Below are positions 21,863-52,240 of a stretch of 64,000 nucleotides of DNA, in pieces. Every line of letters starts with the position of its first letter. Positions within the stretch are counted from its first letter, which is position 1. This DNA comes from a plasmid. The position numbers and the translations under genes were made by a program. The notes under the pieces are model-generated. The model had not been told where the DNA came from, made no database searches, and saw only the letters and a list, made by a program, of their open reading frames with translations. The stretch lies in the sequence record NZ_MK262712.1; one strand, given 5' to 3'.

Positions 21863-22915
21863 TTACAATTGTGAAATTGAACGTGATACTTCTTCCGGGA
21901 AAAGTTGCTCAAGCAAAATTTCAGCTTTACTACATGCTTCAGAAGATAACTTAGACGTGAATGCAATTTTAAACCCAACAGAAATTTCTTCATCAAGGAC
22001 TTTGGAGGTAGAAATCCATGAAATCAATTCACGAATATCCATCACCAGTTCGTCATCTTTCAGATTGTTAAGTTCAAAAGCAACTTTTGCAAACATTCTT
22101 AAACATGAAGGTTTCAAATCAGGAAAATGAGCCTCAGCTGCACAATACATAGCTTGTTCATCAGGTCGAATCATCGGCAATATTAAAAAACGCTTAATAA
22201 ATGCAGAGTCTTGGGACTGTGATGAAGCGAAACGCATATCCTCTCCACTCATGTTAGTGTTAGCTGTACCAATAAAGCGGGTGTAGCGATTTGCATAAAT
22301 CAACTCGCCACCTTCTTTACCGGTTGCCCACGGTTTACGCTCAAGCGGCATATGAAGCTTAGCTGCCGTATCTGGGTTTATTTTATCTATCTCATCAAGA
22401 AGAATGATATGCCCATCACGATAGCCTTGCACAAGGTCACTATAAACATACCGTGTATTTCCATTTTCTAGCGTTCTCATACCTTCAAGATCATCAATCG
22501 ATAACTCATTGTTGATTTGTTTGATGGTGATAGGCCAGTTCAGCATATGGCTGATATATAATGCTAACTCCGTTTTACCAGATCCAGATTCTCCTTGCAG
22601 GCAGATGCCAGCAGTTACTTCATTATTTAAAAGTAACTTCACCATACGGCGTAGAGTGATCGGATTTGGACGATATTTACTGTTTAACGGAGCACGAAAA
22701 GGAGTAACTCTTTTGAAAATAGGTATAACGTCATTTTCTCCAAAACAGTCAACATTAAAGTGCTCGTTTGCACGGACAATAATGTATTCCTCTTCATCTT
22801 GATATTCTATAGCCTTGGTTAACTCATGAGGTTCGAAATATTTAATTTCTAAGTCAGAGTTAACATTCAAAGTTAGAATTTTTGCATTGTTGTTAGCAGT
22901 AGTAGCGGGTGTCAT
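21863..22915 (-). CDS. AAA+ ATPase of the MoxR/AAA_5 (CbbQ/NorQ/CobS-like) type.
   Basis: Walker A GESGSGKT and Walker B ILLDEID motifs. About 350 aa, a typical MoxR-like size. Confidence 0.7.
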   Translation of the reverse strand: MTPATTANNNAKILTLNVNSDLEIKYFEPHELTKAIEYQDEEEYIIVRANEHFNVDCFGENDVIPIFKRVTPFRAPLNSKYRPNPITLRRMVKLLLNNEVTAGICLQGESGSGKTELALYISHMLNWPITIKQINNELSIDDLEGMRTLENGNTRYVYSDLVQGYRDGHIILLDEIDKINPDTAAKLHMPLERKPWATGKEGGELIYANRYTRFIGTANTNMSGEDMRFASSQSQDSAFIKRFLILPMIRPDEQAMYCAAEAHFPDLKPSCLRMFAKVAFELNNLKDDELVMDIRELISWISTSKVLDEEISVGFKIAFTSKLSSEACSKAEILLEQLFPEEVSRSISQL

Positions 22916-33561: not shown

Positions 33562-34410
33562 ATGAAAAAAACATTATTAGCTATCCTCACATGCACTCTT
33601 CTGGCCGGATGCGCCACTCAACCACAGAGCCCAGATAACCGTATGTTCACAAAAGAACACGGTGTTTACTGGCATGCAGATCCTCAAAAATCGGTGGCAA
33701 CGAACGCATACGCACTTGCAGGTGTACCAGTAAATGTAGATGAAGCAGAGAATGCAGGAGGGGGAGTTGATGAAGGTCTTGCTTCAAAAATGCTTCTGAA
33801 CACTGCTACCGGTGTAATAACAGGCGGGCTTAAAGCTGGAATTGGGATGTTTACGGCATCACTCTACAGCGAGGCTGATGCTGAATTTCTCATGGTTCCA
33901 CAGAGTGTGGTTTTCGTTTCAAATCCTCGCAATCTTCCTTATGACGACCCATCACTTATAAAAGAAGGGGCCAGAATTGTTATCGAGTCAATAAAGGAAC
34001 AACCTAAAATTTTAGGTGCAACTTATGAGGGTCAAATAAACGCCTTGAACGCATGCACAATCTCAAAATCTTCAATGGGACCTTGGGATAGTTGCGAACT
34101 TAAATCAAAGGTAGAAAACTCAGGGGATGTAGGAAGTGAGTTCTTCAAATACCAGGTTATCCGGCCAGCAACTGGTGATGAATTAGCTCAGCTTTCGTTG
34201 CCAAAAGGTAATTACTCGATAATTCGATATACTAATATTTTTAGTAAGAATGCTACATTTATGACTAATAACTTTCCAGGTTTTATTCTACAGCCTCAAT
34301 CAAAGAAAACAGCACCTGGATTTCCTAGTGTGACAATTAATAATCTTGAATATTATTTTATTAAAGGTGATCTTGGAAAGAAAGGATTTCCTCATAAGAA
34401 AGAAATATAA
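33562..34410 (+). CDS. Lipoprotein (282 aa).
   Basis: Signal peptide with lipobox LLAGC (MKKTLLAILTCTLLAGCATQP). Confidence 0.5.
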   Translation: MKKTLLAILTCTLLAGCATQPQSPDNRMFTKEHGVYWHADPQKSVATNAYALAGVPVNVDEAENAGGGVDEGLASKMLLNTATGVITGGLKAGIGMFTASLYSEADAEFLMVPQSVVFVSNPRNLPYDDPSLIKEGARIVIESIKEQPKILGATYEGQINALNACTISKSSMGPWDSCELKSKVENSGDVGSEFFKYQVIRPATGDELAQLSLPKGNYSIIRYTNIFSKNATFMTNNFPGFILQPQSKKTAPGFPSVTINNLEYYFIKGDLGKKGFPHKKEI

Positions 34411-34432
34411 TCCGGATTTGTCAGTGAACGGA

Positions 34433-34460
34433 AAGGCCGGGTCTCCGGCCTCCTACTTTT
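34433..34460. terminator. Bidirectional terminator between the lipoprotein gene and traN.
   Basis: GGCCGGGTCTCCGGCC hairpin followed by a T-rich stretch. Confidence 0.5.
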
Positions 34461-37400
34461 AATTAATTGAATTACCAGTTACAGGATCAACGTAGACAGA
34501 GCCTACCTCACATACACTTGGTCTCGGAAGGTATGAACAATCTACATTGTTGCCATTAATTGCCTGCACATTCTCTTCTCTCGCTTTGGTCATATTGATA
34601 CTACCCCCCATCGACTCCAGTGTTCGCTCCGAGGACAATTGCGCCTCGTTATTTTTATATGGACCCATATTAGCTACAGAACTCTCTGTGAATGCTGCGT
34701 ATTCATCCGGGACTTCCCCCGCGACAACTGCTGATTCAATATACTCAGTCATATCTATTTTATCCCAGTCAAGTTGCTGGACCTGTGAGATAGTTAATCC
34801 CACACAACCACTTTCTACAGGATTAATTCCCAATTGCGGATATGCCTGCTGCATTATTACCCTTGATAATAAAGAGTTATAACAGCACATGTCGGTTGCT
34901 TTTTTAATGCACTTCTTAGTGAAGCCAACGTTGAGATATTTAACGCAACGATCTGTATCAATAACAAAACATGCCCCTTGGTTTTTGTGAATTGACGCTT
35001 CCATCTCTTTTTGGTCACAAGCCAGAAGCATTTCGAGAAGCATTTTTGTGATTTGATAAGCAGTATATATCCAACCAACTATGTTTAAAGCTAACATAAA
35101 ATTCTGAACAGCACTTGAGAAAACTGCCTGTCCAAGTTGTGTGGTGGCCGTCTTATCAAACACAAAGTCCCTGATTGCATCGGGCAACATATCGTAAGCT
35201 TTATTCATCAACTGCTGTTTTATTGCAGCGAGACCGCCGGTCTGTAACCCATCTTTGGTGAGCTCTGTTGTAACAGCTGAACCTCCCCCTTCAACTGTTG
35301 AAGAGCCAATAAGTCTCGAGACGTTTCCTGCTATTGATTCATAAGCAGAAGTTAGTGGTTCAGTCACGCGTTGCCACATTTGGCCCACGCTTGAAGATAC
35401 ACCGGAGGTCCATTGTCCGACAGAGTTCGTCATCGATGCCCACGTACCTGACTCACCACCAGTCCAGGTTGTCAGCTTTGCTGATATTTTTTCCCAGTTT
35501 GTGTTTCTGAGCATTGTCCCGGCTAAGATAATTGCCTCTAGTTTTCCGGCTGCACCTTTAGGAGCTTCGCAGCAATCTGTTTTTGCCAACCCGTTTACAA
35601 AGCCTACAGAACGGCCACACCATTGCTTCTCTCCGGAGAAGACAATGCAACTATTGGGGTCGTTAGGGTCACTACACATAGCATCGCCCTGCATGTTCTG
35701 AACCATGCTGCTATAGGCTGCGACCTTACCGAAATCACTGTTTTGTTCATTCGCACCGGTATTACAAGTACCTCCTGAACATGGGATCATGCCTACGCAG
35801 GTGTTTGCTTCGTTTGTTACTGTCACAGTCCTTGTTATTCCTTCATCACAGGTCCACTTTTGTTCGTACATGTAACATTGATTAGTAGCAGAATCGAACC
35901 ATCCCTCAGCGCATGTTTGACTGGACATAGTGCATGCAGAGTTTGTAGAGTATTTTGAACATGCATCAGGCATATTCTTTATCTGGTCATAATTGTAACA
36001 AGCCTCATTGCCATTCTCATCTTTAAGAATATTTCCTGATGCATCATACTGACATAATTTTTCTTTCCCTAACGGATCGCAAAAATATCCTTCTAGATTA
36101 GTTTTCCAGGTTAAGTTACCTTGGTCTCCTTCATATAAAGGTGATGCATATTGCAATATCGATTGTGGTAAACGTTTAGTGCCTACATCAAGATCGGCAA
36201 AACGATCAAACCTGCAAAATGAACCTGTTTGTTTAACAACATCGTAGCAGCCAGGTGGGTCCTGTATATGTTTATCTTCAAGTTTGATATTTTCAAAAAT
36301 TAGTTCTACTTCAAAGTACCCTTCACCGTTACCCCCGACCCATACAGTAGATGACATTTCAACTTCGTGGTCACTTTCTTTGTACACGGATTCTGAAACT
36401 TGGCGCGTTATATCAATAGGTTCCTTTAATTTATTCGATTTATTTCTCTCCATGCCATTACGTGGTGGGCCATAACCAGGTTCGCGATATTCACCATCGA
36501 TATGAGCAAAAATCTGCTTGCCATCAAGATTAACTTGCATGTGGTCATCCCACTCAGCATTTACTATGCTTGCTGATTTTAAGATAGCGTCCTGGTGGAA
36601 ATGAAGCGTCATGCTATTGTCATAAACACCACCAGACCAGTAGTCATTACCACGCTTTCCGAACCAGATACGTATACAGTTATCGCCACATACGCTTAGG
36701 TCACCATTACCACCAGAGATGTAAACTGGTACACTGAAGTCACGTGTAATAGTGCAACTACCATAATTATCTTTTTTAGGTGCGTTACAGTAATATTCCT
36801 TATAATCAGGAATATGTTTTTCTTTTGTTGTAGTTGTGGTCTGTGTTGAACAGTTTTGCAACCATTGACCCGTACCAGCCGCTGCGTTTGCTATTTCATT
36901 TCTGCCACTTGTAAACATTGGGTCATTTGGCGAAATATTAGGGGCTGGATTGGATTTTGTTGCAGCCACCAGCGAACGATATGCTTGCCCATCATAACTA
37001 TTAGCAGTGAATAATTGACTCTTACGAGTTTTTATATCGTTAATGAATCCTTTCTCGTCACCATAACTATCACCAGCATTAAACTGAACATCAGCATTAT
37101 TTTGCTCTGAACTATACATTTCAGCTGTATTGGTACTAGTGATCGCGCCTCCAGGATTGGGGTTGTTACTTATAGATATACTTCCATCCTGGTTACGTGA
37201 AAGTAACTTTCCACCGTTTTCTGAACCTTTTATGTTTATATTATTACCGTTCATGTTGGGTAGCATTACCGTACCAGCGATGTCCGAACCATCAGTTTTG
37301 GCATAATTCAAAACATCATCATTTGTGAATGTTTTTCCACCATATTTCTTCAGGTCCATTGACGAACTGTTAGTACTATCAAAACCATTTATTTTGTCGG

Positions 37401-37644
37401 TATAAGAAGGATTTTCACTATTCTTATATTTTTCTAAAATGTCCTCTGTAGTTACTGTTGAAGTTCTGTTCGCTGCAGGATTAGCAAGATCAAAATTGTT
37501 TTCCAGTTGTTCATAAATTTCGTTTGCCGCATATACTTTCGGTGCCATCACAATATTGAGAAGCGTGACATAATACGCCCAACTGAGCGTATTAGTTACG
37601 ATTGACACAGCTACGGCTAAGGAAACAGCCCTTTTAAATATCAT
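34459..37644 (-). CDS. traN: TraN-like Cys-rich outer-membrane mating-pair stabilisation protein (large variant, 1061 aa).
   Basis: A signal peptide and many conserved-looking Cys pairs in the C-terminal half (…CCEAP…CCYNSLL…). It sits immediately downstream of traU, as in F/H-like systems. Confidence 0.65.
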   Translation of the reverse strand: MIFKRAVSLAVAVSIVTNTLSWAYYVTLLNIVMAPKVYAANEIYEQLENNFDLANPAANRTSTVTTEDILEKYKNSENPSYTDKINGFDSTNSSSMDLKKYGGKTFTNDDVLNYAKTDGSDIAGTVMLPNMNGNNINIKGSENGGKLLSRNQDGSISISNNPNPGGAITSTNTAEMYSSEQNNADVQFNAGDSYGDEKGFINDIKTRKSQLFTANSYDGQAYRSLVAATKSNPAPNISPNDPMFTSGRNEIANAAAGTGQWLQNCSTQTTTTTKEKHIPDYKEYYCNAPKKDNYGSCTITRDFSVPVYISGGNGDLSVCGDNCIRIWFGKRGNDYWSGGVYDNSMTLHFHQDAILKSASIVNAEWDDHMQVNLDGKQIFAHIDGEYREPGYGPPRNGMERNKSNKLKEPIDITRQVSESVYKESDHEVEMSSTVWVGGNGEGYFEVELIFENIKLEDKHIQDPPGCYDVVKQTGSFCRFDRFADLDVGTKRLPQSILQYASPLYEGDQGNLTWKTNLEGYFCDPLGKEKLCQYDASGNILKDENGNEACYNYDQIKNMPDACSKYSTNSACTMSSQTCAEGWFDSATNQCYMYEQKWTCDEGITRTVTVTNEANTCVGMIPCSGGTCNTGANEQNSDFGKVAAYSSMVQNMQGDAMCSDPNDPNSCIVFSGEKQWCGRSVGFVNGLAKTDCCEAPKGAAGKLEAIILAGTMLRNTNWEKISAKLTTWTGGESGTWASMTNSVGQWTSGVSSSVGQMWQRVTEPLTSAYESIAGNVSRLIGSSTVEGGGSAVTTELTKDGLQTGGLAAIKQQLMNKAYDMLPDAIRDFVFDKTATTQLGQAVFSSAVQNFMLALNIVGWIYTAYQITKMLLEMLLACDQKEMEASIHKNQGACFVIDTDRCVKYLNVGFTKKCIKKATDMCCYNSLLSRVIMQQAYPQLGINPVESGCVGLTISQVQQLDWDKIDMTEYIESAVVAGEVPDEYAAFTESSVANMGPYKNNEAQLSSERTLESMGGSINMTKAREENVQAINGNNVDCSYLPRPSVCEVGSVYVDPVTGNSIN

Positions 37645-37653
37645 CTTGACCCC

Positions 37654-38691
37654 TTAACCAAGCCACCTTACGCAGCAATCGTTATAACGCCAAAGCATGT
37701 ATACATAGTTATTTACACCTATACGTTTTCGTCCGCCCTTCCGTGTCGACCAGTCATGAACAGAATCACCAAGTCTATGACAACATTCCGGTCCTTCTGC
37801 TTCCGGTACGGGATACAGCATCGATAGCCTGTACTGTGATCTAGGCATGAAATAACTGAACCTGCGTTCGCACATAGCGTCCTGGCCCATGGTTTTCATC
37901 AACATTCCTTGCCTGTGCAACTTGGTAATCATTCGTTGAGTTAATAATGAGGAAACCCGGACTGAATCGTCATTCGCAAAAACATGGCCGGTTAGCGGAT
38001 AGAGGTTACCATCACAACCTGCACAAAAGTGGGCACTCAGATTGTCAGCCCCAGCTGTAACCTTCACACAGTCAGCTGCGCACCACATTGAAGCAATAGG
38101 ATTTGCGAAAACAACTGCCTCAGGATTTAATACGAGTGTAAGCAGGTCATTTTCCCAGAGCGGATCAACTTCGCTAATGTAGGTAAGAGACGGGTCAATA
38201 TAAGGCTCAGCGGTACAATCCCCCATAATGAGGAGCTTAAGCATCACTAGGATCGGAAACTCCCATAAGTGAACATCATAAAACCCTGCCTCATTACCCC
38301 CTTTGGGCCTGTTAGTTGCTCCTTTCCCCATATCGAAGCTTGAAGACTGAAGACTAACCCCTTCAAGGAATGGCGAACACCATGGTGACTGTACAACCTC
38401 TACTATTTTTACTGGTTGGAAAAACGACAGTTGCCATCCTACCTCTGGGACCCCATTTTGATCTGTGCAATAACATACGGGTTGTGACGGTGCAGCCCCT
38501 TCTGGTGAGGAGCCTACTCCCATAATGCGCATTGGAAAAATACAGCTCCAACAGATGTTTTTAATCAAACCTTTCCAAACACCGGCCGATTGACAGATTC
38601 CGCTACCCGTCTCAGCCCCAATCGCCATTCCTGGTAAAGCCAGGCTGAGCATGACAGCAGTGAATGCTGACAAAAGTAACTTTCGTATCAT
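37654..38691 (-). CDS. traU: TraU, an F-type T4SS pilus-assembly protein.
   Basis: 345 aa. It shares several motifs with F-plasmid TraU as I recall it: ICWSCIFP, LNPEAVIFANPIA, LHRQGM, FCAGC…YP. Confidence 0.85.
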   Translation of the reverse strand: MIRKLLLSAFTAVMLSLALPGMAIGAETGSGICQSAGVWKGLIKNICWSCIFPMRIMGVGSSPEGAAPSQPVCYCTDQNGVPEVGWQLSFFQPVKIVEVVQSPWCSPFLEGVSLQSSSFDMGKGATNRPKGGNEAGFYDVHLWEFPILVMLKLLIMGDCTAEPYIDPSLTYISEVDPLWENDLLTLVLNPEAVVFANPIASMWCAADCVKVTAGADNLSAHFCAGCDGNLYPLTGHVFANDDSVRVSSLLTQRMITKLHRQGMLMKTMGQDAMCERRFSYFMPRSQYRLSMLYPVPEAEGPECCHRLGDSVHDWSTRKGGRKRIGVNNYVYMLWRYNDCCVRWLG

Positions 38692-40049
38692 TGAGCCGCC
38701 TCTTTTTCTGATTGCTGATTTATACGCGTATACTCGCGTACATCTGCCTGAGCAAACTGCTGTACTTTGAAGTAGGTTCCTTCAACCGATATGATTGTAG
38801 GGGTGGACTTAATCAGGAACCGGCTAATGATTTCAGGGTTGATCTTGTACATCTGCCCATAGAACTGGCCGCGCAACTCCTCTAAATGCTTCCAGCCATC
38901 ATCACGTTTGATTCGCGTAAAAATGGGCATAACTTTTCCTTCGCCGAAACGGTGACGAAACTGTATTTTGGCCCATGTCAGCTGCTCAGAATTCATTGGG
39001 TCAAAAACGATCATTGTCAGTTTCTGTGGAAATTGAGCAAGAGGATTTCCCTTCTGCCCTGCGGCAGCAATGAGGTTACCTTGGTTATCTCTAATATCTT
39101 GGTTTACCTGAATTGTTGGGTCGATATACCAGATTTTATTCTCGTCAGATACGGGAAGGGACGCCATCCACTGATTTTGCCAAGTTGATTTTATTGCGTT
39201 CTTTTTGGCCGCCTCCCAGTCATATTTATTACTTCTCTCCTCAAGTTCCTGTACAATACTTTTCTCTTTTATAGGGAATGTTTGGGCTGAAACCGGGAAG
39301 GTTGTTTTTTCTGGGTTTTCCTCGATCTGTTTCATGAAATACTTAATGTTAATCGACCCACTAATCTTGTAGGTTTTATCATCTTTTCTGTACACCATCG
39401 TTGGAACTTCTTTTACGCTATACTGGGTAAAACTTTCCGGATCGAGGGTGACTAAAGGTTCTTTTTTTATTTTTGCTTTAGATATATAATCACGCAGCAC
39501 TACCTGCATCTGAATAAGGTTTTCTACACCTTCCTTAAGCCCCCTGAACACCACGCGCGCATTGTTTTCCGATGCTGTTTTAATCAGGTCTATCAATACA
39601 TAGTCTGGCATGCTGAATGATGCAAATATTGTCAAGCCATTATCAGTCGATAGTTCTTCATTTTTGTTGTTATCTAATTTACGTTCGAAGTCCTGTGCAG
39701 TAATCCCCGACTTCCCAAACATTTTTTCAACGTTGGAAGACTGGGTTCGCATTGACTCGTTTTTTGACTTGTTAATTGTGTCTGCCTCTTCAGAGAAGGC
39801 CTCTGTAGACTGATTCTTTTTTATGTCCTGCGCAATATCACTCATCGCTTCCACTTCACGCAGCTTACCTGTGTGTTCTATCACCGCACGCACACTGTCG
39901 GAGACAGAGCTGGGATTGTACCGGGGTGTGCCGACAATCGACTCTATGCTTTGAGTCTTTGCATGATCAATAGAGTCATCGGCATATGACAGAGATGTAG
40001 CTAACAGGCAGCTAAAAAGTAACTTTTTAATACATTCAGAAGATGGCAT
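38688..40049 (-). CDS. traW: TraW/TrbC-family periplasmic pilus-assembly protein, possibly a TrbC-TraW fusion. The start is probably the internal MPSSE… with a signal peptide.
   Basis: Its position between the TraF-type peptidase gene and traU, the signal peptide, and its size are consistent with TrbC plus TraW. There is no strong motif. Confidence 0.5.
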   Translation of the reverse strand: MPSSECIKKLLFSCLLATSLSYADDSIDHAKTQSIESIVGTPRYNPSSVSDSVRAVIEHTGKLREVEAMSDIAQDIKKNQSTEAFSEEADTINKSKNESMRTQSSNVEKMFGKSGITAQDFERKLDNNKNEELSTDNGLTIFASFSMPDYVLIDLIKTASENNARVVFRGLKEGVENLIQMQVVLRDYISKAKIKKEPLVTLDPESFTQYSVKEVPTMVYRKDDKTYKISGSINIKYFMKQIEENPEKTTFPVSAQTFPIKEKSIVQELEERSNKYDWEAAKKNAIKSTWQNQWMASLPVSDENKIWYIDPTIQVNQDIRDNQGNLIAAAGQKGNPLAQFPQKLTMIVFDPMNSEQLTWAKIQFRHRFGEGKVMPIFTRIKRDDGWKHLEELRGQFYGQMYKINPEIISRFLIKSTPTIISVEGTYFKVQQFAQADVREYTRINQQSEKEAAQ

Positions 40050-40560
40050 ATGCTTTTCCTGTGATTGTCGTTTCTGGTATTGTTCCCCAAAAACGGGAAT
40101 CCCATGAGTAATCGGTCTGGCCAACTACGAAAATGTGTCCAGCTGGAACCGTGATTTCACGGTTCAGAATTTGCGGTTCAATATGGTATTTTTTGGCAAT
40201 ACGCCTTCCGTCAACCCGGAAAATACGGTCGCCGTTTTTAACGTATGTTTCTGTAATCTGGATTTTGTCCCCACCCTTACCAGCAACGATTTTTATTACC
40301 TTCTCCCCAGGTTTAATGAATCGAACATCTCTGTCCATGGTGAAGTTAATCATATCCCCAATTTCATAGCCCTTATCATATTTATCCACCATGTAATAAT
40401 CAGCTGGAATACAGCCATGCAGGAGTCCATGCCCCAGAGTGAAGCGGGAAAAGAACAGATGCATTAATACCGAGATGATCACCAGGTGCAGAATCAGTGA
40501 TTTATCAACTCGTAAAACACCTCTTCTGTGCGGAGAAAGATATCTAAGGGACATCAACAT
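40036..40560 (-). CDS. traF: S26-family signal peptidase of the conjugative-transfer TraF/TrhF type.
   Basis: 174 aa with an N-terminal TM segment and the C-terminal signal-peptidase I box VVGQTDYSWDSRFWG. Confidence 0.75.
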   Translation of the reverse strand: MLMSLRYLSPHRRGVLRVDKSLILHLVIISVLMHLFFSRFTLGHGLLHGCIPADYYMVDKYDKGYEIGDMINFTMDRDVRFIKPGEKVIKIVAGKGGDKIQITETYVKNGDRIFRVDGRRIAKKYHIEPQILNREITVPAGHIFVVGQTDYSWDSRFWGTIPETTITGKAYAIF

Positions 40561-40649
40561 GAGATGGGTCCTGAATGATTATTTCAGGATATTATGCCCG
40601 AAAGGAAGAGGCCATTTGCTGAATAACAAGATGATTTTAATCATTTACC

Positions 40650-40680
40650 AAAAAAAATAGCCCCTGACTCAGGGGCTACT
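40650..40680 (-). terminator. Rho-independent terminator after the 1413-aa gene.
   Basis: On the minus strand, hairpin TAGCCCCTGA-GTC-AGGGGCTA followed by TTTTTTTT. Confidence 0.55.
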
Positions 40681-40697
40681 CAAGAGAATGACTTATG

Positions 40698-43600
40698 TCA
40701 GTTATTCAACGTAATGAAACTTGTCGCTGAATCACCGCTGTCATCGTAAGCAGTTATAGACACCACCAGCTTACCCTTATTTTGAGCTTTGGACAGTGTT
40801 GCAGTACTTCCGAACACACCACGAACCTGATCATTCACCTTCCAAACATAACTGGAAATCTTGCCGTCAGGATCACTGCATTTTGCAGTAAATGCCCAGC
40901 TCAGTTGCGTTTCAGTGTATGTCAGGTTACATGTAGGAGGCGTGTTCGGTATCACGTCAAAATCAACCACAACAACCCCTCTCTGACCCTGCGTACTGAC
41001 AACGTCCATTTCCAGTTTATAACTACCTTCCATGATGTTCTCAAACGTCTGTGACCAGTAATTTTTGCCACCATCGACAGGCTTACCATTCAGCTTAAAC
41101 GTCACATTGTCAATTGAGTCTGCCGAGTGGGCCAGCTTAACACTGGACCTCAAGGACAGGTCCAGCGGGGCCCTCATGAACTTGTTAGAGTATTTGGGAG
41201 TAACGCTAATTTCCATCGGACTCTGTTCGTTCACGATAAAAGTGTAATCAACCCGGGCTTCATTGTTCCTGTTATCCTTCAGGACATACGTCAACGTATG
41301 TGTACCCGATTTTGTTACCTGGAACACTTTCGTCCCGTTATTGTCGCTGGACAGCGTCATCATATTTTTGTCGTATTGCCAGTCCTGGGTGAACACAACT
41401 CCAGGATAAGAAACATCCACACCAGAGACTGATACGGTGAGTTCCGAAGGTATCATGGTGTATTTCAGTTTTGTATTCAGGCGTGGCTCCGGGAATTTGT
41501 ATACCCAAGATTTTACGCTGATTTTCCGTTTTGCTATGGTTCTGTCTTTTGCCTCCGGCATGTAGGCCTGATACGTAAACGTTGCATACCCACGTTCATC
41601 TAACATGTCTTCGGTCAGGACGGTATCAAGCAGCCCCCCCTGTTTTACGCTTCCATCAGGGAGCACCCACTCCTGGACAACTTTAGCATCAGATGAGTAC
41701 TCGATATTAGGGTTCGTGTAGGTACCCTGCAAAGTAACTTTTTTACCTACCTCTACCTGCGAGTTCCCCTCAACCTTAACCGACAATTTCTTATGCTTAA
41801 TGACAGTGACACGAGCACGAGTTTCTTTCCATGCCGATTTCCCGGCCATTTCGTCGGTTTCGGTATACCGTACTTTTGCAAAGATATACTTGGGCACCTC
41901 CGAGGACGTAATCATGTATTTAACCCCCCCCTCAGTCCATTCCTCTCCATCCTCTGACCACTGGACTTCAACTGCACTACCTTGTACATCTTCATTGTTA
42001 TCAGTCAGTGTCACCGGGATGCTGTGCCCCTCAAGAACCTTTCCAACCGAGATAACAGGTTTAGGTTCCCGGTAAGCAACCACCGTGAGATTATCGGTAT
42101 ATGAGACCTTACCTGTGTATTTGTTGGTCAGTTTGGCGCGGTAAAGCCACTTACCTACTTCTTTTTGTTTGATGCTTACGCTTCGAAGTCCGGTCATATC
42201 TTCAAGCGTATTCCAGGTTGATCCATTGTTACTGGACATCTGCCATTCAGTTGGACTCAGGGAATCATAATCATCGGTACTTTTCGTTCTGAATGAGACC
42301 ATTGCTGACAGAGGAACTCGGCCTACAATAAGCGATTTAGACAGCCCACCTTCGAGGTTGGCCCCTTTATACACCCTGATACTTGTTGTTGATGTCTCAC
42401 GTTTGAGTACAAAATCTTTAAACGGACTGCGTACCGTAGCTACTGCGATGATGCGGTGACTACCCAGAGTCAGATCGTCCATGTTGAGCTCACCGGTCGC
42501 AATCCCCTCAGAGTTAACGGGCAGATCACCGGTCAGAGGAGTTCGCTCAGTTACCGAAACATCTTTACCGGTTTCTTCATCCGTAACCCATTTAGAGGTA
42601 ACTTTGTAAACCACCACATCCCACTGCCCCATTGTGGAGGCATCGTACAATGTACAGTTACAGCTGTTATTCCATTGGCCGATGTTTACCGATACCGGTA
42701 CTTTCAAACTCGTTGCTGATTTACGCTCTGCAACTTTCATATAGGCACGAATACTGAAGTTTGGAACAGTATAAACTTTGAGCACACTGGATGACTTTAT
42801 ACTGGCTTCATTTTCGTAGGAAGCTTCGATGTTTACATTCGTTTGCGTCCACAATGGCGCTGCAGGTACTTTTATACGCTCAGAATAAGTTACCGGCGTA
42901 TCACCACCTGATTTATTCTTGTAGGTTTTAGTTTCAGCGTCCTGGCCTTCAACCTTAGTTGTAAGGACAACGTTAGCCGGTACTGATTTTGCAAGCACCT
43001 TAGCTGCGTCCCCACCAGTGATATAAACCAGTGCTGTATCCTTACCAAGAGTCTCTACCGTTTTACTCATCTTGTATGAAATTTCAGGTGCAAACGGTTC
43101 AACGGCTTTAACGGTTTTACGGTTATGAGTGGCAATGGCTTTAGAGCCTTTTGTATTAATCACATAGACGTTGTAGTCAAGGACGTTATCGCCAACTTTA
43201 GAGAAGTAACCCGTCAGGCCAGGAACTTTAGACTTCGAGTAAAATTCGAGACCAGATGGAACGTTGTTCCACTGAACATAACAGGCCGTTCCATAAACCG
43301 CAGTTCCGAACTGGCTAAGAAACGCCTGAGCGTCTTCTTCAGTAGAGAAAATCTTACAGGTATTCCCTGATTGCTGAGTAACCAGCGAAGTGTAAGGACG
43401 GACGTAACCGTAAATCGTAGACGCTGATTCGATGGACTTCAGAGTGAAAGTCATCGGCATATAGGTAAAATCGATTGAATAGGTTTTGGATATACCGTTA
43501 ACATTCTCAGCAACAACCGTCAAAGTATGGACTTTGTTTGTTTCGAGTGACGGCATCGGCTTTAACCGGTAGATCCCTTTGACGTTTGTGGGAGTGTATG

Positions 43601-44939
43601 AAGCCATGACGTTATCAATGACAACGCTCTTGATGTCGGCAACACCCTCTTCGCCCTGGAATGCAGCAATAACGATCTCATTCAGGAAGTACACCTGGTC
43701 CCGCTTAACAAGCTCTGAGCCGTCCTTGAAAACGGAAACAGATGGTTCATCAGACAGTATAAGTTTAGATTCCGGTTCGGTATAACTGGAATCATTGCCC
43801 GCTGTATTAGACACAGAATATGTTGCAACGTAAGAAGCGCTGGCCAGATCGCTTATATCAAAAAAATAAACAAATTTACCCGCAACTTCCTGATATCCGG
43901 CGACAGGTTGAAGAGTTCGACGGGACGGAGTTGACCAAATTTTGTTAAAATTAAGCTCCGTACCATCATCTAAAGTAACTTTTGTCATTGGAGAGAAGCT
44001 ACCATCAGGAGCAAGTGTGAGCGACATTGCAGCAGGTTTCCACCAGTCATTGGTATCTGACCGGGCAGGAACCGAGACAGCTACAGCGATCGTCTGCGGA
44101 GCAACGTAGATATCTTTATCTCCGATCTTGAATGACCGAGCTTCTTTAGAGACGTTCCAGAAGGTATTGTCTATCGCTGGAGCGCGGTAATCCCAGCTTA
44201 ATCTCACCTTAGAGGTTACTGGTGGGGAGAAGTAATTATTGAACGAGTTTAAGGTTACGCCTACATCCCTGCTTCCGAAATCGGAACCCCCATCACTGAT
44301 GCCTACGCTTCCGGTCGTTATAGAACATTTTGAGGCTCCTGCAGCAATGGCGCAGGATGTCCCAGAACCGACAGACGCGACCATATCGTAGTCTCGGGGT
44401 TCAACGGTTATATCAATATTTGAGAGTGTCTCGTTTTTAATGTATGACGTCAGTGTTGAACCGGAAGAACCGTTGCTCATTGAACCTTTTATAGAAGTAA
44501 TCACAGGAGCTACAGGCGCAACAGTCTTGAAGTTGTACTCCCCTTCCTTGACTATGACTTTTTCACGTTCTGAGCCCGAGTAGTAAACGATTTGCCATGG
44601 AAGTTTGATATCCCCAGCTATGGCAGGGATGCCCTTCAGTGAGAACCCATTAGCAATCGGCATACCGGAATTATTAGGTAACCATTCAAACACACATTTC
44701 AGGCTACCAGCCGTACTTTTGACATTAGGATCAGAGGACACCTCGCATCCCTCAGATACCGGAATAGCTGTAACCGTACTTTCTTTCACGAAGGCCGTAT
44801 TTACTTGTGAACTGGTAGAAAATTTGACATCTGGTAATGACGTTTCCAGGGTACCGGAAACCATTATCGATTCTGCGTTTGAAAAAGCACTGAACACAGA
44901 ACAGAACATCAGGAAAGAGATTTTATTAATTTTAGTCAT
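40698..44939 (-). CDS. Very large (1413 aa) secreted protein, beta-rich and Ser/Thr/Val-rich, with a signal peptide and no predicted TM helices. It is a candidate surface adhesin or aggregation factor embedded in the T4SS operon.
   Basis: N-terminus MTKINKISFLMFCSVFSAFSNA|ES. The composition resembles tandem Ig-like domains. It carries 3 palindrome copies internally. Confidence 0.55.
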   Translation of the reverse strand: MTKINKISFLMFCSVFSAFSNAESIMVSGTLETSLPDVKFSTSSQVNTAFVKESTVTAIPVSEGCEVSSDPNVKSTAGSLKCVFEWLPNNSGMPIANGFSLKGIPAIAGDIKLPWQIVYYSGSEREKVIVKEGEYNFKTVAPVAPVITSIKGSMSNGSSGSTLTSYIKNETLSNIDITVEPRDYDMVASVGSGTSCAIAAGASKCSITTGSVGISDGGSDFGSRDVGVTLNSFNNYFSPPVTSKVRLSWDYRAPAIDNTFWNVSKEARSFKIGDKDIYVAPQTIAVAVSVPARSDTNDWWKPAAMSLTLAPDGSFSPMTKVTLDDGTELNFNKIWSTPSRRTLQPVAGYQEVAGKFVYFFDISDLASASYVATYSVSNTAGNDSSYTEPESKLILSDEPSVSVFKDGSELVKRDQVYFLNEIVIAAFQGEEGVADIKSVVIDNVMASYTPTNVKGIYRLKPMPSLETNKVHTLTVVAENVNGISKTYSIDFTYMPMTFTLKSIESASTIYGYVRPYTSLVTQQSGNTCKIFSTEEDAQAFLSQFGTAVYGTACYVQWNNVPSGLEFYSKSKVPGLTGYFSKVGDNVLDYNVYVINTKGSKAIATHNRKTVKAVEPFAPEISYKMSKTVETLGKDTALVYITGGDAAKVLAKSVPANVVLTTKVEGQDAETKTYKNKSGGDTPVTYSERIKVPAAPLWTQTNVNIEASYENEASIKSSSVLKVYTVPNFSIRAYMKVAERKSATSLKVPVSVNIGQWNNSCNCTLYDASTMGQWDVVVYKVTSKWVTDEETGKDVSVTERTPLTGDLPVNSEGIATGELNMDDLTLGSHRIIAVATVRSPFKDFVLKRETSTTSIRVYKGANLEGGLSKSLIVGRVPLSAMVSFRTKSTDDYDSLSPTEWQMSSNNGSTWNTLEDMTGLRSVSIKQKEVGKWLYRAKLTNKYTGKVSYTDNLTVVAYREPKPVISVGKVLEGHSIPVTLTDNNEDVQGSAVEVQWSEDGEEWTEGGVKYMITSSEVPKYIFAKVRYTETDEMAGKSAWKETRARVTVIKHKKLSVKVEGNSQVEVGKKVTLQGTYTNPNIEYSSDAKVVQEWVLPDGSVKQGGLLDTVLTEDMLDERGYATFTYQAYMPEAKDRTIAKRKISVKSWVYKFPEPRLNTKLKYTMIPSELTVSVSGVDVSYPGVVFTQDWQYDKNMMTLSSDNNGTKVFQVTKSGTHTLTYVLKDNRNNEARVDYTFIVNEQSPMEISVTPKYSNKFMRAPLDLSLRSSVKLAHSADSIDNVTFKLNGKPVDGGKNYWSQTFENIMEGSYKLEMDVVSTQGQRGVVVVDFDVIPNTPPTCNLTYTETQLSWAFTAKCSDPDGKISSYVWKVNDQVRGVFGSTATLSKAQNKGKLVVSITAYDDSGDSATSFITLNN

Positions 44940-45066
44940 GGAACGCTCTGATCGTAGTTATGCCATAGTTACATCTAATGTATCCTATGAACAGAGCGTA
45001 TTTTTCCCATTAAGGGAAGTATCTTCATTGAAATTCCCGTAAAACGGGAATGGCTGGACAGAAAAG

Positions 45067-45606
45067 TTACTTTTGTAGTTGAGCATTTGCATTAAGACGC
45101 ATGCACGTTAGAACCGCGTCAGATGGAACCCCTGGATTTCGGGCCAGTATGACGGATAAGAGGAAAAGACCTAAGCGAAGGCAGGCGGCAGGATCAATAC
45201 TAATTTTATGTATAAAGTTAATGTCTCGCTCGTCTTTGTTGATAGCTACAACGCCCCCCTCCAACATTGCTGTGGATTTACCATCAAAAGTAACTTTTAC
45301 GTTTTTGTAGACTTGCTTATTATGGTGCTTTGTTTTTTTATCTTTCAGAACAGCCTCACGAGTAAGGCGAAGAAACGCCATACACAAAGCGATCACTTCA
45401 TCATCACTCAGCTTTGTTGAAAAGGCCTTTTGCCCAGTCCAGTCAAACGCGCCCGGCTTAGATGCTAAAGGCCCAGCAAGGATAAGATTCACACTGCCAT
45501 TTGTCTCAGAATAATTGAGCTCAAGTGCAGTCTTGCCGGAATTAAATACCTTTTCATTTCGGTAAGGTTGATGCTGTGGAACATCATTATTTATATTTTC
45601 CACCAA
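45067..45606 (-). CDS. Hypothetical protein (179 aa).
   Basis: ORF. Palindrome copies at 45063 and 45287. Confidence 0.4.
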   Translation of the reverse strand: MVENINNDVPQHQPYRNEKVFNSGKTALELNYSETNGSVNLILAGPLASKPGAFDWTGQKAFSTKLSDDEVIALCMAFLRLTREAVLKDKKTKHHNKQVYKNVKVTFDGKSTAMLEGGVVAINKDERDINFIHKISIDPAACLRLGLFLLSVILARNPGVPSDAVLTCMRLNANAQLQK

Positions 45607-45993
45607 ATATGTCCTTCACCTTCGTTGATTAAATCCTTCACCAGACCAATGTAGGTATTCCCTCCAGATTGCTTCATCGCAAAAATATAAGCACTGGTCT
45701 CTAGCATTAGATAGTCTCCCGATGGAGCACCAGGTGGAACCTCTGTAGAGCTAAGACTTTTAATGTACTCCTTTTTAACAATAGAAGGAATGTTGTTTAT
45801 CATTATTGTTTTTTCATCAACGATCTTAAAATTCATACTGGTTTCAGCGCCCGCCAGACTTACGGCATGAACCGAGTTTTGCTTAAAGCTCGACAGGCTT
45901 GGTTTATTCATAGTTAGAGAATAAATACCTAGCAGGGTAATAAGTGGAACTATGAAGAAACTAACTTTTTTAATACTCACTATCTTCATCGTC
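45591..45993 (-). CDS. Small exported or membrane protein. The start is probably MKIVSIKK…
   Basis: Signal/TM segment FFIVPLITLLGIYSL. Confidence 0.35.
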
Positions 45994-46428
45994 ATCAAAT
46001 CCCCCTTGGGTCTGGCATGCAGTAATGTAAAGAATTCTAAGTTGATGTAGGAAATTTTCTGCTGTAGCACCACCTACAAATGTTATCATTCTGTTAATTC
46101 TGATGCCTGCATCTTCAAGTTCAAACTCAGCTATTCCACAATCCGACATTATTGTCATCGTGTTTTCATCTGGGTCTTCATCAAGCGAAGGGGGTATAAT
46201 AATGGATAAGATAACAGTATCTACTGGAGCTATTTCCCAATTGTGTTCCTCTCGGGCCATAGGAATTATCTGAATAAAATACCCATCCAGGATCAAAGAA
46301 AGTGGATTGCGGGTGTTGTCAGCAAACCCAAAATTACTGGTTGCTTCTTCGAAGTTTAAGCCAGAGCGCTCAATAATCTTGAGAAGTTCCTGCTTTCGTA
46401 CCCCATGGTAAATCATGCCATCTGTCAT
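45970..46428 (-). CDS. Acidic hypothetical protein (152 aa).
   Basis: ORF. It is the first gene after the 680-bp divergent intergenic region. Confidence 0.4.
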   Translation of the reverse strand: MTDGMIYHGVRKQELLKIIERSGLNFEEATSNFGFADNTRNPLSLILDGYFIQIIPMAREEHNWEIAPVDTVILSIIIPPSLDEDPDENTMTIMSDCGIAEFELEDAGIRINRMITFVGGATAENFLHQLRILYITACQTQGGFDDDEDSEY

Positions 46429-47111
46429 CTGTAGTTACTCATGTGCTTTGATGGATAGTGTGTCGCTAAAAATCATACCAAAAACAAAGTATTCCTACCT
46501 CAGCCAGAGTGAGAAAAAGTTAACTTTCGCTCTGAACCTGTAGGTTTATCTAATCTTAGCTTAACATGTAAGCTACCGATATCTGCACCGCTCATAATTC
46601 TAAGGGCTCGTATTATTCACTTGTTGAACTAGATCATCAATCGAAAGGAACACATTACAACGCGCCAAAAGTTACTTTTATCAGAATGCACACAATTTAG
46701 CTCGAATAAGAATCTGGATTGTGATTTGGTAACAGGATCTTTAACTTTAGCAATCAGAGTATGCCTTGCTTTTACATTGCAGTATCACCATTTAAAACAA
46801 TAAGTTATAACGAAACACCAAGTGTTTGATAACATGCATTTTCACTGGATCTGCGCTTACGAATGTGGCACTGAGGCAATTCTTTAACCTTGTAAAGAAT
46901 GAGTGAGCCCGCGCTGGAGGTCAGACCTTTGGTTGCATTTAAACCACGTGTGTTACATGCCTACATGGGAATGATTCTCATCAACTATTAAAAAGTCACT
47001 TTTACATAAATCTAACAATGTACTGAAAAAAAATATTGTAAAAATAGCTTTTTTCCTCTCTGGCGACGTCATCACATCCCTCATAAATGTATGATCACAC
47101 AGAGGTGATAA

Positions 47112-49522: not shown

Positions 49523-52240
49523 TTAAGCAACCTGCCTTGTTTTCATGCCTAACTGTACTAGCTCTTCTTCATAAACCCTGTCAATTGCTTCGGCATACGT
49601 ATATCCGTCATTAACAAGGTTCCATATTTTACGTCGGTCAGACGGGTCTGTAGTAAAACAAAGTTCCATTTTACGATCAACATAAAGACGGACGATTTGT
49701 TGCACGTTCTCAAAACGAATCATAATCTCTGAAAAAACATACTTTACAGTCCTGATCATCTTCATCCGTTCATATTCTGATGCTGATGCTGAAATATATT
49801 TATTTTTCTCCATTGAATCAATCGCCTCTGGGCTCTGCTTCATAATAAATTTCCATGGTGAGTTGTTGGCTATCGCTACACCGATTGGCGACTTGTAGAA
49901 GTCTTCGAAGCTCTGTGTAATACAGATCCCTGCACAGTTTGTTTTACGGAAACGACGCCATGCTGCTTCAAGGAATTTAGTAAAAAAGTTAACAGCAGCA
50001 TCATCACCATTACTTTCGCCGATATACTCCCAGGCCTCATCAAGTATAAACAAACGACGACGACCATCCTTTTTAATAAACATAGCATGCTGTGCTGCCT
50101 GGATTATCGACATTAACACAACCCACTGAAGATGTGGTGTAGGTTTGAGTTCTTCAAGTTCAAGTACAATGAAGCGGCTATTAAAATTAATGGGTGGCAA
50201 TGATGTTGTAAACCTCCTACCGTAAATGCCGCCTTCACACCAAGGTCCAAGTTGAATGCCTATATCTTTAATTTCTTGTTTCTCATGCTTCATGCATTTT
50301 TTAGCGAAGCCAGTAACTGAAGGAAGATATCCATCTTCAGGGCTATTTGATTCCTCAGCAATAAGACGAAGCATTACTGCTTCCTGTAAAGAACTAATGT
50401 TACCATTACTTGAAGCCATTAGTTTTAGTTGATTCAGAACCATGATTGTTTGAGCAATAATGTCTGATTCTTTACTTTCTTCGCCTGAATTTCCCGTTAA
50501 TCCCTCCAATGATTCATCTCCTGTATATTTTCTCACCAGGAAAGCGAAAGGGTTAAGAGAAAAGGTAGCGTCAACTCCAAAATCAATAAATTGAGAGTCC
50601 TCAAATTGCTCAGCAAGCCCTTGATATGAACGTCCGATATCAACAACAAACACCTGAGCACCATCTGGTGACGCATTAAATTTGCCATTCAGGTCCAGAG
50701 GCGGATCGTATTTATCTGCCGTAAGCAGATCTCTAATATCATCAAAATGATAAAGCGGATTTATATGCTCGCCAGAACAAAGATAGTTGAGAATAATGTT
50801 GTTTGCTGCAAATGATTTACCTGCCCCTGAGGTAGCCCCAACGCATACGTTGTAACTGGCTGAAGTTTCGAAAATATCAATCATAACCAACTGTCCCTCG
50901 CGGGTTACAAATGGAATGACTGGATTTGTGGAGTTTCCTTTCCACGGGCCAAAGATAGGAGCTAGGTGAGCCGCACCCGTATTAGTCATTACATCACCAC
51001 GATCCATATCTCTAAAAGTCGCCGGATCATTACATAAAGGTAAAGCCGACATGACACCTGAAAAACAAATATAACTATCATCAGCCACAACGATTTTTTT
51101 CTCGCTGTAATAGTTAATTAGACTTTTTGCAGCTATTTTCACTTTTTCCAGTGTATTATCCATGACGATAAATGTCATGTAAGTTTGTAGTAGTTTAGCT
51201 TTATCCTCCAACTCTCTAGTCAATGCCGAGTAATCCTTGTCCATATCGGCAAGGCGAGGAAGATATTTTAAAACAATAGGTATTTTTGACTGATTATCTG
51301 TTATCGCTTTATAACGAAGATACTCTTTCTGTATTTTCTTTTGATGTGGGAATTGTATACAGAAGTTGATAATAAAAGGAGAGAAAATGGTTTTGCTTCC
51401 AGTCATCCAGTCAACAACCAACTCGTAAACAGCACCAAAGTTGACATATTCAGGGAATTTTGTCATCGACAAATGCTTAAAATATCGTTGAGCTGTCTCA
51501 TCATCATCAGCAGACAATGACGCGAAATAATCCTCCCCCACCTCATATTTCCTTCCTGGAATGTTGACCTGATTATTTAATGGCATTAATGTACTAGCTT
51601 CAAGTCCACCATATTTCCATCTGGAGTCTTTTCCGGGGTTTAATATTTTATCAACACTGTACAACCATGTGTCAGCATTACCAACAATTGGTGACAAGGT
51701 TAAACCTTCTAGTTTAGATAGAAGGTCTTTAAAAAGGCCATCCAGTCGCATGGATTCGGATTCATTAGGAGAAAAACCTTTAATAGGTATCCTAACCGTT
51801 ACCCACAACTCGAAATTCCTAAGCTTCAAATCATCAGCTTGCGTGATCTTAATGCCATCAGCTTCTTTCAAAGGCTCATATTGACTTTTTGTCAGGTAAT
51901 CCAGTGAGTATACGGTAAGGAGATCCGCTTTTTCATTATCCCTACCTCCCATCCTGTTACCTCTGCGACGTAACCAACGGGACAATGATATGTTGACATC
52001 CGGTAAAGCAGCCAGTGTCATTTGCATAATGGACTCCGCAGGAAAATCCATTTTAAACAGATCCGTCAATAGGTTTTGTTGGTTATCATACAATCCAGGA
52101 GAAGGGTTGCAGACAAAAAAGAAACCTACCGCGTTATCTTCCAGCAAAAAATAAGGGGCATCCACCATTCTGTCGACCACGGGAATGAAGTGCCCTAAGT
52201 TATATCTTTCAAGTTCTTTTGCGAGACGTGAATTGTTCAT
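49523..52240 (-). CDS. traC: TraC/VirB4-family T4SS ATPase.
   Basis: 905 aa. Walker A GATSGAGKSF and Walker B …RRLFILDEAWEY…. The size and position are typical of F-like TraC. Confidence 0.85.
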   Translation of the reverse strand: MNNSRLAKELERYNLGHFIPVVDRMVDAPYFLLEDNAVGFFFVCNPSPGLYDNQQNLLTDLFKMDFPAESIMQMTLAALPDVNISLSRWLRRRGNRMGGRDNEKADLLTVYSLDYLTKSQYEPLKEADGIKITQADDLKLRNFELWVTVRIPIKGFSPNESESMRLDGLFKDLLSKLEGLTLSPIVGNADTWLYSVDKILNPGKDSRWKYGGLEASTLMPLNNQVNIPGRKYEVGEDYFASLSADDDETAQRYFKHLSMTKFPEYVNFGAVYELVVDWMTGSKTIFSPFIINFCIQFPHQKKIQKEYLRYKAITDNQSKIPIVLKYLPRLADMDKDYSALTRELEDKAKLLQTYMTFIVMDNTLEKVKIAAKSLINYYSEKKIVVADDSYICFSGVMSALPLCNDPATFRDMDRGDVMTNTGAAHLAPIFGPWKGNSTNPVIPFVTREGQLVMIDIFETSASYNVCVGATSGAGKSFAANNIILNYLCSGEHINPLYHFDDIRDLLTADKYDPPLDLNGKFNASPDGAQVFVVDIGRSYQGLAEQFEDSQFIDFGVDATFSLNPFAFLVRKYTGDESLEGLTGNSGEESKESDIIAQTIMVLNQLKLMASSNGNISSLQEAVMLRLIAEESNSPEDGYLPSVTGFAKKCMKHEKQEIKDIGIQLGPWCEGGIYGRRFTTSLPPINFNSRFIVLELEELKPTPHLQWVVLMSIIQAAQHAMFIKKDGRRRLFILDEAWEYIGESNGDDAAVNFFTKFLEAAWRRFRKTNCAGICITQSFEDFYKSPIGVAIANNSPWKFIMKQSPEAIDSMEKNKYISASASEYERMKMIRTVKYVFSEIMIRFENVQQIVRLYVDRKMELCFTTDPSDRRKIWNLVNDGYTYAEAIDRVYEEELVQLGMKTRQVA

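Follow-up and report, generated by a model that had tools for sequence, protein, structure and literature searches.

The closest described relative of the gene considered here is rsp, open reading frame (ORF) R0009 of the IncHI1 plasmid R27, whose product RSP is a 155.4-kDa protein with 61% beta structure and 1% helix that carries a Big_3 domain at residues 331-470 and is present in the secretome (PMC6764697). Deletion of rsp makes R27 transfer in liquid undetectable, a defect that was complemented; export of RSP requires TrhC, the ATPase of the type IV secretion system (T4SS), and the protein binds flagella and lowers motility but is needed also in non-flagellated cells (PMC6764697). RSP2 (R0055, with DUF4165, Big_1, and Big_3 domains) and TrhH co-precipitate with RSP, whose export depends on TrhH and on the pilin TrhA, and the conjugative pilus is decorated by RSP as well as by RSP2 (PMC8730810); what RSP has been demonstrated to bind is the flagella and the conjugative pilus of the donor itself (PMC6764697, PMC8730810). 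In R27, the gene belongs to the AN operon (htdA, htdF, htdK, R0009, trhP, trhW, trhU, and trhN), where a separate R0009 transcript exists and promoter activity was found upstream of R0009 and of trhP (PMC7366339). The R27 protein has also been put forward, and tested, as a surface antigen through which antibodies, nanobodies, or vaccination could act against plasmid-bearing bacteria (PMC11268884), and in a bioRxiv comparative study homologues of R0009 served as a marker of Tra2 across IncHI plasmids. Here we analyzed 64,000 nucleotides of the plasmid record NZ_MK262712.1 (the whole stretch is called the window below), in which one large gene encodes a 1413-residue protein. Judged by sequence and gene order, it is a member of a known family, the IncHI3 orthologue of rsp in the Tra2 AN operon, and not a new kind of system. 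Our literature search found no paper on the IncHI1B/IncHI3 version of RSP, the RSP papers covering IncHI1 and IncHI2 only.

The gene and the one Pfam domain that anchors the comparison with R27 are as follows.

40698..44939 (stop codon included), minus strand: coding sequence of the rsp orthologue, 1413 aa, ATG start, from the ORF list and its translation.

43452..43877 (residues 355-496), minus strand: Big_3_3, a bacterial Ig-like domain of group 3 (Pfam PF13750, E = 2.9e-7, 30.7 bits against a cut-off of 27).

The predicted product has a mass of 154.7 kDa and a pI of 6.0. When we searched all plasmids by tblastn, 98-99% of the query was matched at 51% identity (E = 0) by those genes of IncHI1 and IncHI2 plasmids that RefSeq names "rsp: IncHI-type conjugal transfer protein RSP." By BLASTP, the protein was 50.7% identical to the RSP of pHCM1 (R27-type) over residues 10-1411 and 51.4% identical to the IncHI2 RSP, the alignments running from residue 10 or 22 to residue 1411 at about 1470-1500 bits (E = 0). 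A three-way alignment with the IncHI1 and IncHI2 proteins was collinear, broken only by five small gaps of 1-2 residues, and the C-terminal tail of the window protein was the shorter one. Big_3_3 sits at the same residues in the pHCM1/R27-type RSP, where the model matches residues 356-497 with a score below the cut-off. The proteins also agree in size (1413 versus 1432-1434 aa, about 155 kDa), in having a signal peptide, and in four conserved cysteine pairs. Set against these likenesses, the RSPs of IncHI1 and IncHI2 share 84% identity whereas the window protein is only 51% identical to them, and it lacks the 18-residue acidic and Ser-rich C-terminal tail that they carry. The IncHI1 and IncHI2 genes bear the label rsp and the window gene is not so named by the Prokaryotic Genome Annotation Pipeline (PGAP) or by any NCBIfam hidden Markov model, which is a matter of a naming threshold and not a biological criterion.

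Gene order gave the same answer. The neighbors of the gene, all read from the same strand, are listed in the order in which they would be transcribed.

45970-46428, minus strand: htdA-like gene, from synteny and weak homology to htdA of R27.

45591-45995, minus strand: htdF-like gene, from synteny and weak homology to htdF of R27.

45067-45603, minus strand: htdK-like gene, from synteny and weak homology to htdK of R27.

40036..40560, minus strand: trhF/trhP, an S26-family (TraF-like) signal peptidase directly downstream of rsp (Pfam Peptidase_S26, E = 6e-18).

38688-40049, minus strand: trhW, a TrbC and TraW fusion (Pfam/NCBIfam TrbC_Ftype/TraW; 51% identity to IncHI1).

37654-38691, minus strand: trhU (Pfam/NCBIfam TraU; 79% identity to IncHI1).

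34459-37644, minus strand: trhN (Pfam/NCBIfam TraN; 64% identity to IncHI1).

The order htdA-htdF-htdK-rsp-trhF(P)-trhW-trhU-trhN is identical in the window, pHCM1 (IncHI1), an IncHI2 plasmid, and pKOX_R1, and the flanks are syntenic as well, with an opposite-strand metallophosphoesterase gene and three hypothetical genes on one side and a divergent lipoprotein gene on the other. Every neighboring protein is homologous to its IncHI1/IncHI2 counterpart (25-79% identity). The three small overlapping genes upstream of rsp (45067..46428) match htdA, htdF, and htdK by BLASTP at 25-32% identity (E from 1e-28 to 7e-5), and their counterparts in pHCM1 and IncHI2 are annotated as transfer repressor, H transfer determinant A, and plasmid transfer protein; the trhF/trhP product is recognized by NCBIfam as signal peptidase I, with a weaker TraF_Ti match, and is 49% identical to IncHI TrhF. 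Full-length homology, synteny, and the matching position of Big_3_3 together make the gene a positional and sequence orthologue of rsp (R27 R0009). An earlier note, written from this DNA alone, had placed the 1413-aa ORF between small upstream genes and a TraF-type peptidase gene, and both the coordinates and the Pfam matches agree with that placement. Its further statements, that such a protein is not normally found in H-like transfer operons and that the gene had been inserted into this one, do not hold. An R0009 allele was present in all 34 IncHI1 and all 102 IncHI2 plasmids examined (PMC6764697). The gene occupies the same position in IncHI1, IncHI2, and IncHI3 plasmids and in a Shewanella plasmid, and rsp is therefore an ancestral part of the backbone.

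The window is from a Klebsiella pneumoniae IncHI1B/IncFIB plasmid of the pNDM-MAR-like type ("IncHI3," IncHI1B being the PlasmidFinder type). The Klebsiella pneumoniae plasmid pZ0117KP0028-2 carries a copy with 100% identity to the window gene; this plasmid is typed IncFIB/IncHI1B with a MOBH relaxase and MPF_F, and thus shares the MOBH/MPF_F IncHI backbone of R27 and the IncHI2 plasmids; RefSeq/PGAP labels this identical gene only "Ig-like domain-containing protein." At least 564 plasmids in PLSDB carry the gene, almost all from Klebsiella or Raoultella, 433 of them with an allele at least 99% identical, and 531 of the 564 are predicted to be conjugative. In two Klebsiella plasmids, CP128705.1 and CP128710.1, the rsp orthologue is broken by an insertion of IS5075 (IS110-like), and these represent natural knock-outs.

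To the pKOX_R1 allele, the window gene is 93.1% identical in amino acids and 86.8% in nucleotides, with codon positions 1, 2, and 3 being 95.4, 97.5, and 67.4% identical, respectively. The ratio of nonsynonymous to synonymous substitution rates (dN/dS) in this comparison is 0.05 along all 1413 codons and lies between 0.01 and 0.08 in every 100-codon window. This codon-position pattern and low ratio identify a real gene rather than a chance ORF, and the substitutions indicate strong purifying selection over its whole length; a dN/dS of 0.05 shows a functional gene and does not say which function. The earlier note had allowed that the protein might be a mis-called, membrane-embedded TraG, and one could equally imagine an ORF in decay. 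We found nothing in favor of either. There is no TraG-family match in Pfam or NCBIfam, no transmembrane segment beyond the signal peptide, and an all-beta predicted fold, and next to the purifying selection stands a reading frame that is intact in hundreds of plasmids, so we consider both versions of this reading refuted.

The same comparison bears on what such a protein might do on the pilus. RSP and RSP2 decorate the R27 pilus (PMC8730810), and a large, modular, extracellular protein could serve there as a coat or cap for protection or exclusion, shielding the H-pilus from pilus-specific phages or contributing to surface exclusion, rather than promoting mating. A protein at a phage interface would be expected to diversify, and the uniform dN/dS of 0.05 argues the other way, as does the lowered transfer of R27 after rsp deletion (PMC6764697); we regard this possibility as very improbable. 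A surface adhesin might likewise be expected to show diversifying selection, and no 100-codon window of the pKOX_R1 comparison gave any sign of it.

As a separate observation from the pKOX_R1 locus (L007), identity at third codon positions is mosaic between the two IncHI3 clades. It is 63-76% from htdA through trhF, rsp included (40036-46428), and 39-54% in trhW, trhU, trhN, and the divergent lipoprotein gene (33562-40049), a step that points to an old breakpoint of recombination close to where trhF meets trhW.

The protein itself was predicted by the earlier note to be secreted and beta-rich, with tandem Ig-like domains and a Thr/Ser/Val-rich, repetitive sequence, and most of this description was borne out. 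It begins with the following feature.

44874..44939 (residues 1-22), minus strand: Sec-type signal peptide, MTKINKISFLMFCSVFSAFSNA with cleavage before ES, the sole hydrophobic stretch of the protein.

The signal peptide has no lipobox. An equivalent N terminus (MRKSG..SVQA, cut before EA) is found in the IncHI1 and IncHI2 RSPs, and signal peptides are also present in the IncC protein and the RSP2-like proteins described below. Because only this N-terminal segment is hydrophobic (the highest 19-residue Kyte-Doolittle window elsewhere scores 1.1), no transmembrane helix is predicted outside it. The composition is indeed rich in Ser (11.1%), Val (10.6%), and Thr (9.3%), which together make up 31% of the residues. 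The repetitive part of the description failed, since neither a self-BLASTP search of the protein nor Tandem Repeats Finder returned internal repeats of significance. No NCBIfam family model matched the protein, and a phmmer search against PDB sequences returned nothing at E <= 1.

The fold could be addressed by prediction. We modeled the protein with AlphaFold2 in two halves from a 12-sequence alignment, and both halves (residues 23-720, mean predicted local distance difference test score (pLDDT) 79.9; residues 700-1413, mean pLDDT 76.7) came out as nearly all beta-strand. From strand patterns, dips in pLDDT, and Pro-rich linkers, we estimate about 13 Ig-like beta-sandwich modules. The AlphaFold2 models, the Big_3_3 match, and the Ig-like arrays retrieved by Foldseek thus agree with the predicted tandem Ig-like domains, an architecture that, going by the models, is visible at the level of the fold only and not in the sequence. 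All 12 members of the alignment have cysteine pairs 65/82, 196/205, 528/553, and 1337/1354, and these persist, where alignable, in homologues of just 24-26% identity. The conserved signal peptide and cysteine pairs argue for export by Sec and for folding under oxidation in the periplasm, followed by a T4SS-dependent release. A DsbC-family protein is encoded in the same transfer region of the plasmid. Two stretches of the protein, residues 77-147 and 508-620 (nucleotides ~44499-44711 and ~43080-43418), share a C-x-F/V-x-W ... P-x-G signature with a conserved cysteine pair each, and both align to one and the same duplicated module of the IncC protein described below, which points to an ancient internal duplication beyond the reach of self-BLASTP.

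A fold of this kind invites comparison with adhesins. When searched against the PDB with Foldseek, the models matched only generic multidomain arrays of Ig-like, cadherin, FN3, or macroglobulin type, at 8-15% identity and with low TM-scores; among these were SiiE (2yn3), the giant adhesin of Salmonella pathogenicity island 4 (SPI-4), repeats of an Aeromonas RTX adhesin (6xi1), the grappling-hook protein GhpA, DSCAM, and other adhesin arrays. The resemblance to SiiE and to RTX/BIg adhesins lies in the beads-on-a-string Ig-like architecture (Foldseek E from 1e-6 to 5e-6), and it raises the question whether the protein might work on the cell surface as an adhesin of SiiE/RTX type or in biofilms, used for attachment to a host or an abiotic surface, without a specific part in DNA transfer, and placed in the tra operon for co-regulation only. 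Phyre2 had likewise found the C terminus of R27 RSP to resemble SiiE and SraP (PMC6764697), and IncHI1B plasmids are often virulence-resistance hybrids; the plasmid L008, for instance, bears the name pvirulence_VBA10835. The fold matches, however, are to generic Ig-like arrays, at low identity and TM-score. SiiE- and RTX-type adhesins have near-identical tandem repeats and are exported through a type I secretion system (T1SS) by a C-terminal signal, with no N-terminal Sec signal. The window protein, unlike them, has a Sec signal peptide, neither sequence homology to them nor sequence repeats, and no T1SS genes adjoining rsp, its neighbors being T4SS assembly genes. The position in the pilus operon is kept in IncHI1, IncHI2, and IncHI3 plasmids and in the Shewanella plasmid, the IncC and Pseudomonas homologues adjoin the pilin gene, and the R27 orthologue has a direct, complemented conjugation phenotype (PMC6764697). 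We therefore judge a general adhesin to be unlikely.

Proteins with a proposed or shown role in donor-recipient contact, above all in liquid mating, namely the F-type TraN, the I-type thin-pilus tip adhesin PilV, and the Gram-positive aggregation substance, resemble the window protein in that role only. None is homologous to it, the operon has its own TraN/TrhN, and no shufflon or type IV pilus is present here; for RSP, no recipient receptor is known.

We conclude that the best overall explanation, to which we give a probability of about 80%, is an IncHI3 orthologue of rsp whose product is exported and binds the pilus in the manner of R27 RSP. The conjugation role that the earlier note had put forward fits what is reported for R27 RSP, an exported protein associated with pilus and flagella and needed for mating in liquid (PMC6764697, PMC8730810). 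The more specific suggestion of that note, aggregation or recognition of recipients in a role analogous to PilV or aggregation substance, goes beyond the binding demonstrated for RSP. In the mechanism we propose, the 155-kDa preprotein would first cross the inner membrane by the Sec route, as its conserved cleavable signal peptide suggests. It would then fold in the periplasm into its ~13 beta-sandwich modules, with the four cysteine pairs presumably stabilizing them. By analogy with R27 RSP, where dependence on TrhC, TrhH, and TrhA was demonstrated, it would reach the cell surface or the medium only with a working T4SS/H-pilus machinery; the transfer region of the window contains an intact trhC (49523-52240) and other T4SS genes. 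Once outside, it would bind the conjugative pilus, and flagella too in motile hosts, as R27 RSP does, and the outcome, again established for R27 and expected here, would be stable donor-recipient contact and a higher transfer frequency, chiefly in liquid.

Several points weigh against carrying the R27 mechanism over in full. Klebsiella pneumoniae is classically non-flagellated and non-motile. The hosts of the window allele are mostly non-flagellated Klebsiella, so the usual host lacks flagella, which are the target best documented for R27 RSP, and part of the published mechanism is inapplicable. By the same token, it must be a flagellum-independent role, through the pilus or cell contact, that is under selection in this lineage. 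At 51% identity, the binding partners may differ from those of R27 RSP. No NCBIfam model names the protein and PGAP describes it merely as Ig-like domain-containing. The two-step route through Sec and then the T4SS is our inference, the R27 papers describing T4SS-dependent export, and the 2019 RSP paper does not contain the term "signal peptide" (PMC6764697). Both R27 conjugation and the effect of the IncA/C Big protein introduced below are low-temperature phenomena, and for R27 rsp the temperature data conflict, a lacZ fusion being thermoregulated (PMC6764697) and microarrays showing no response (PMC7366339).

The transcription signals around the gene were examined next to those of its relatives. 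The earlier note had assigned the gene its own terminator, and we located one.

40645..40681, minus strand: hairpin resembling a Rho-independent terminator, GTAGCCCCTG-AGT-CAGGGGCTAT followed by eight T, from a pattern scan.

The hairpin proper (40681..40655) starts 17 nt past the rsp stop codon and has a 12-bp stem with 6 G-C pairs, after which come the eight T; folded as RNA, it has a free energy (dG) of -22.1 kcal/mol, with z = -4.3 relative to shuffled sequences. A terminator hairpin after the gene is common to the window, IncHI1 (L002 13292-13315, dG -22.2 kcal/mol), and IncHI2 (L003, dG -20.4 kcal/mol), kept in position and not in sequence. This positional conservation fits the separate rsp transcript of R27, and if the analogy with that transcript and with the internal promoters of R27 holds, the hairpin probably lets the level of rsp differ from that of trhP-trhN. 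A promoter scan of the 127-nt spacer between htdK and rsp gave no sigma-70-like site on the coding strand. The rsp 5'-untranslated region (5'-UTR) of the window is predicted to fold with ACGCUCUG paired to CAGAGCGU just upstream of the ATG, a stem that covers the ribosome-binding region, and we considered an RNA thermometer there and dropped it, because the upstream arm has two uncompensated changes in pKOX_R1; a hairpin after htdK is likewise not conserved in pKOX_R1. At the other end of the operon, the spacer between the metallophosphoesterase gene and the htdA-like gene (46429-47111) measures merely 683 bp in the window. The same spacer holds parM and a second gene in IncHI1 and IncHI2, together with ISKpn26 in the IncHI2 example, and an IS5 insertion in pKOX_R1.

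Homologues in other transfer operons, which the earlier note had thought worth looking for, were found in IncHI1 and IncHI2, IncC, Shewanella, and Pseudomonas MOBH regions. A word-indexed homologue search yielded 12 clusters only, and it was an exhaustive HMMER search with residues 214-1413 that revealed the wider family, returning 604 cluster representatives with E <= 1e-3, of which 228 had E <= 1e-30. The family falls into two architectures. Proteins of ~1364-1450 aa are collinear with RSP; in proteins of 1700-3771 aa, the match is confined to the last ~890 aa, always at the extreme C terminus, and corresponds to the following part of the window protein.

40704..43376 (residues 522-1412), minus strand: C-terminal core of ~890 aa, common to large Ig-like proteins of other MOBH/MPF_F transfer regions.

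In the Shewanella plasmid, the slot upstream of the S26 peptidase, trbC/W, traU, and traN genes is filled by a homologue of 1467 aa, which aligns at 26% identity across 1349 columns, and a Pseudomonas MOBH plasmid has a 1589-aa homologue between traV and traA. In the IncC plasmid pVC211 (L004 5079-10610), an 1843-aa "Ig-like domain-containing protein" is encoded between the pilin gene traA and dsbC-traC. Its residues 975-1843 match residues 522-1412 of RSP by BLASTP at 24% identity over 903 columns (E = 1e-66), with cysteine pairs 528/553 and 1337/1354 kept, and taken from residue 837 or 975 to 1843, it matches RSP from residue 372 or 522 to 1412 (E = 1e-64 to 1e-66). Its residues 10-812 have the RSP2 architecture (DUF4165, Big_3_2, and Big_3_3) and match ~800-aa DUF4165 proteins of IncHI1 and IncHI3 (E = 1e-56 to 1e-59). 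The domain content suggests that in the IncC protein an RSP2-like and an RSP-like part have been fused, which parallels the co-precipitation of RSP with RSP2 in R27. A Big protein of large molecular mass from IncA/C plasmids (ALG87338.1 of pKAZ3; MS6198_A094) is required for conjugation at 25 C (PMC8730810). With this IncA/C (IncC) Big protein, the window protein shares the homologous C-terminal core, a signal peptide, and a location in an MOBH/MPF_F transfer region; it differs from the IncC protein in length (1843 aa in IncC), in the location of the latter at traA/dsbC-traC and not upstream of the S26 peptidase gene, and in that the N-terminal 812 residues of the IncC protein are not RSP-like.

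RSP2 itself is an exported Ig-like IncHI protein that co-precipitates with RSP (PMC8730810). It shares Ig-like domains with the window protein, and the overlap consists of Big_3_3 only (~30% identity over ~150 aa, E = 2e-7); unlike RSP2, with its ~800 aa and N-terminal DUF4165, the window protein matches neither DUF4165 nor Big_3_2. No large ORF with DUF4165 or Big_1/Big_3_2 lies inside the window, and RSP2 is not encoded there. In the IncHI1B/pNDM-MAR-like plasmid NZ_CP053766 (L008), three RSP2-like paralogues lie beside Tra2 and parAB.

L008 11908-14346: RSP2-like paralogue, 812 aa, with DUF4165, Big_3_2, and Big_3_3.

L008 20578-22983: RSP2-like paralogue, 801 aa, with the same domains.

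L008 23122-25527: RSP2-like paralogue, 801 aa, with the same domains.

The three are 50-71% identical to one another and 36-38% identical to a DUF4165 protein of pHCM1, and by alignment of the flanking genes the first would start ~135 nt past window position 64000. RSP2 was reported to be specific to IncHI1 (PMC8730810), which may reflect the search made by those authors. Because the IncC protein is a fusion of the "Rosetta-stone" kind and three diverged RSP2-like paralogues stand beside Tra2 in IncHI1B, one can speculate that the ~890-aa module is a general extracellular accessory of H-type (MOBH/MPF_F) conjugation in IncHI1, IncHI2, IncHI3, IncC, Shewanella, and Pseudomonas, paired with a DUF4165-Big partner and acting purely on the pilus or the recipient surface in non-flagellated Klebsiella. 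The RSP2-like paralogues could then diversify contact or recipient specificity. We regard this extension as tentative and rather doubtful.

Elsewhere in the window, we noted several features apart from the transfer operon.

18510-22915, minus strand: a 705-aa protein with collagen triple-helix repeats and a VWA domain, adjoining a DUF3150 protein and an AAA_5 (MoxR-like) ATPase, a trio that is unusual for a plasmid backbone.

28356-29636 and 30620-31861, plus strand: two close TnpB genes (IS605 OrfB / Cas12f-like TNB domain) encoding 426 and 413 aa, in a region of higher G+C.

4257-6082: a pair of strA-strB-like aminoglycoside phosphotransferase genes.

8803-11512: a reverse-transcriptase gene, possibly that of a group II intron, and then a phage-integrase-family gene.

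13121-14080: a gene for a Tus/Ter-family replication-terminus-binding protein.

The C-terminal core shared across MOBH systems, the RSP2-RSP fusion of IncC, and the RSP2-like trio of IncHI1B are leads and not established results. In Klebsiella pneumoniae, plasmids of the pNDM-MAR-like IncHI1B/IncFIB type are a major vehicle for carbapenemase genes, and some are resistance-virulence hybrids. At 51% identity, the Klebsiella version would probably escape reagents made against RSP of R27, and it would need a study of its own. That version also offers a natural test of which function of RSP matters in the absence of flagella.

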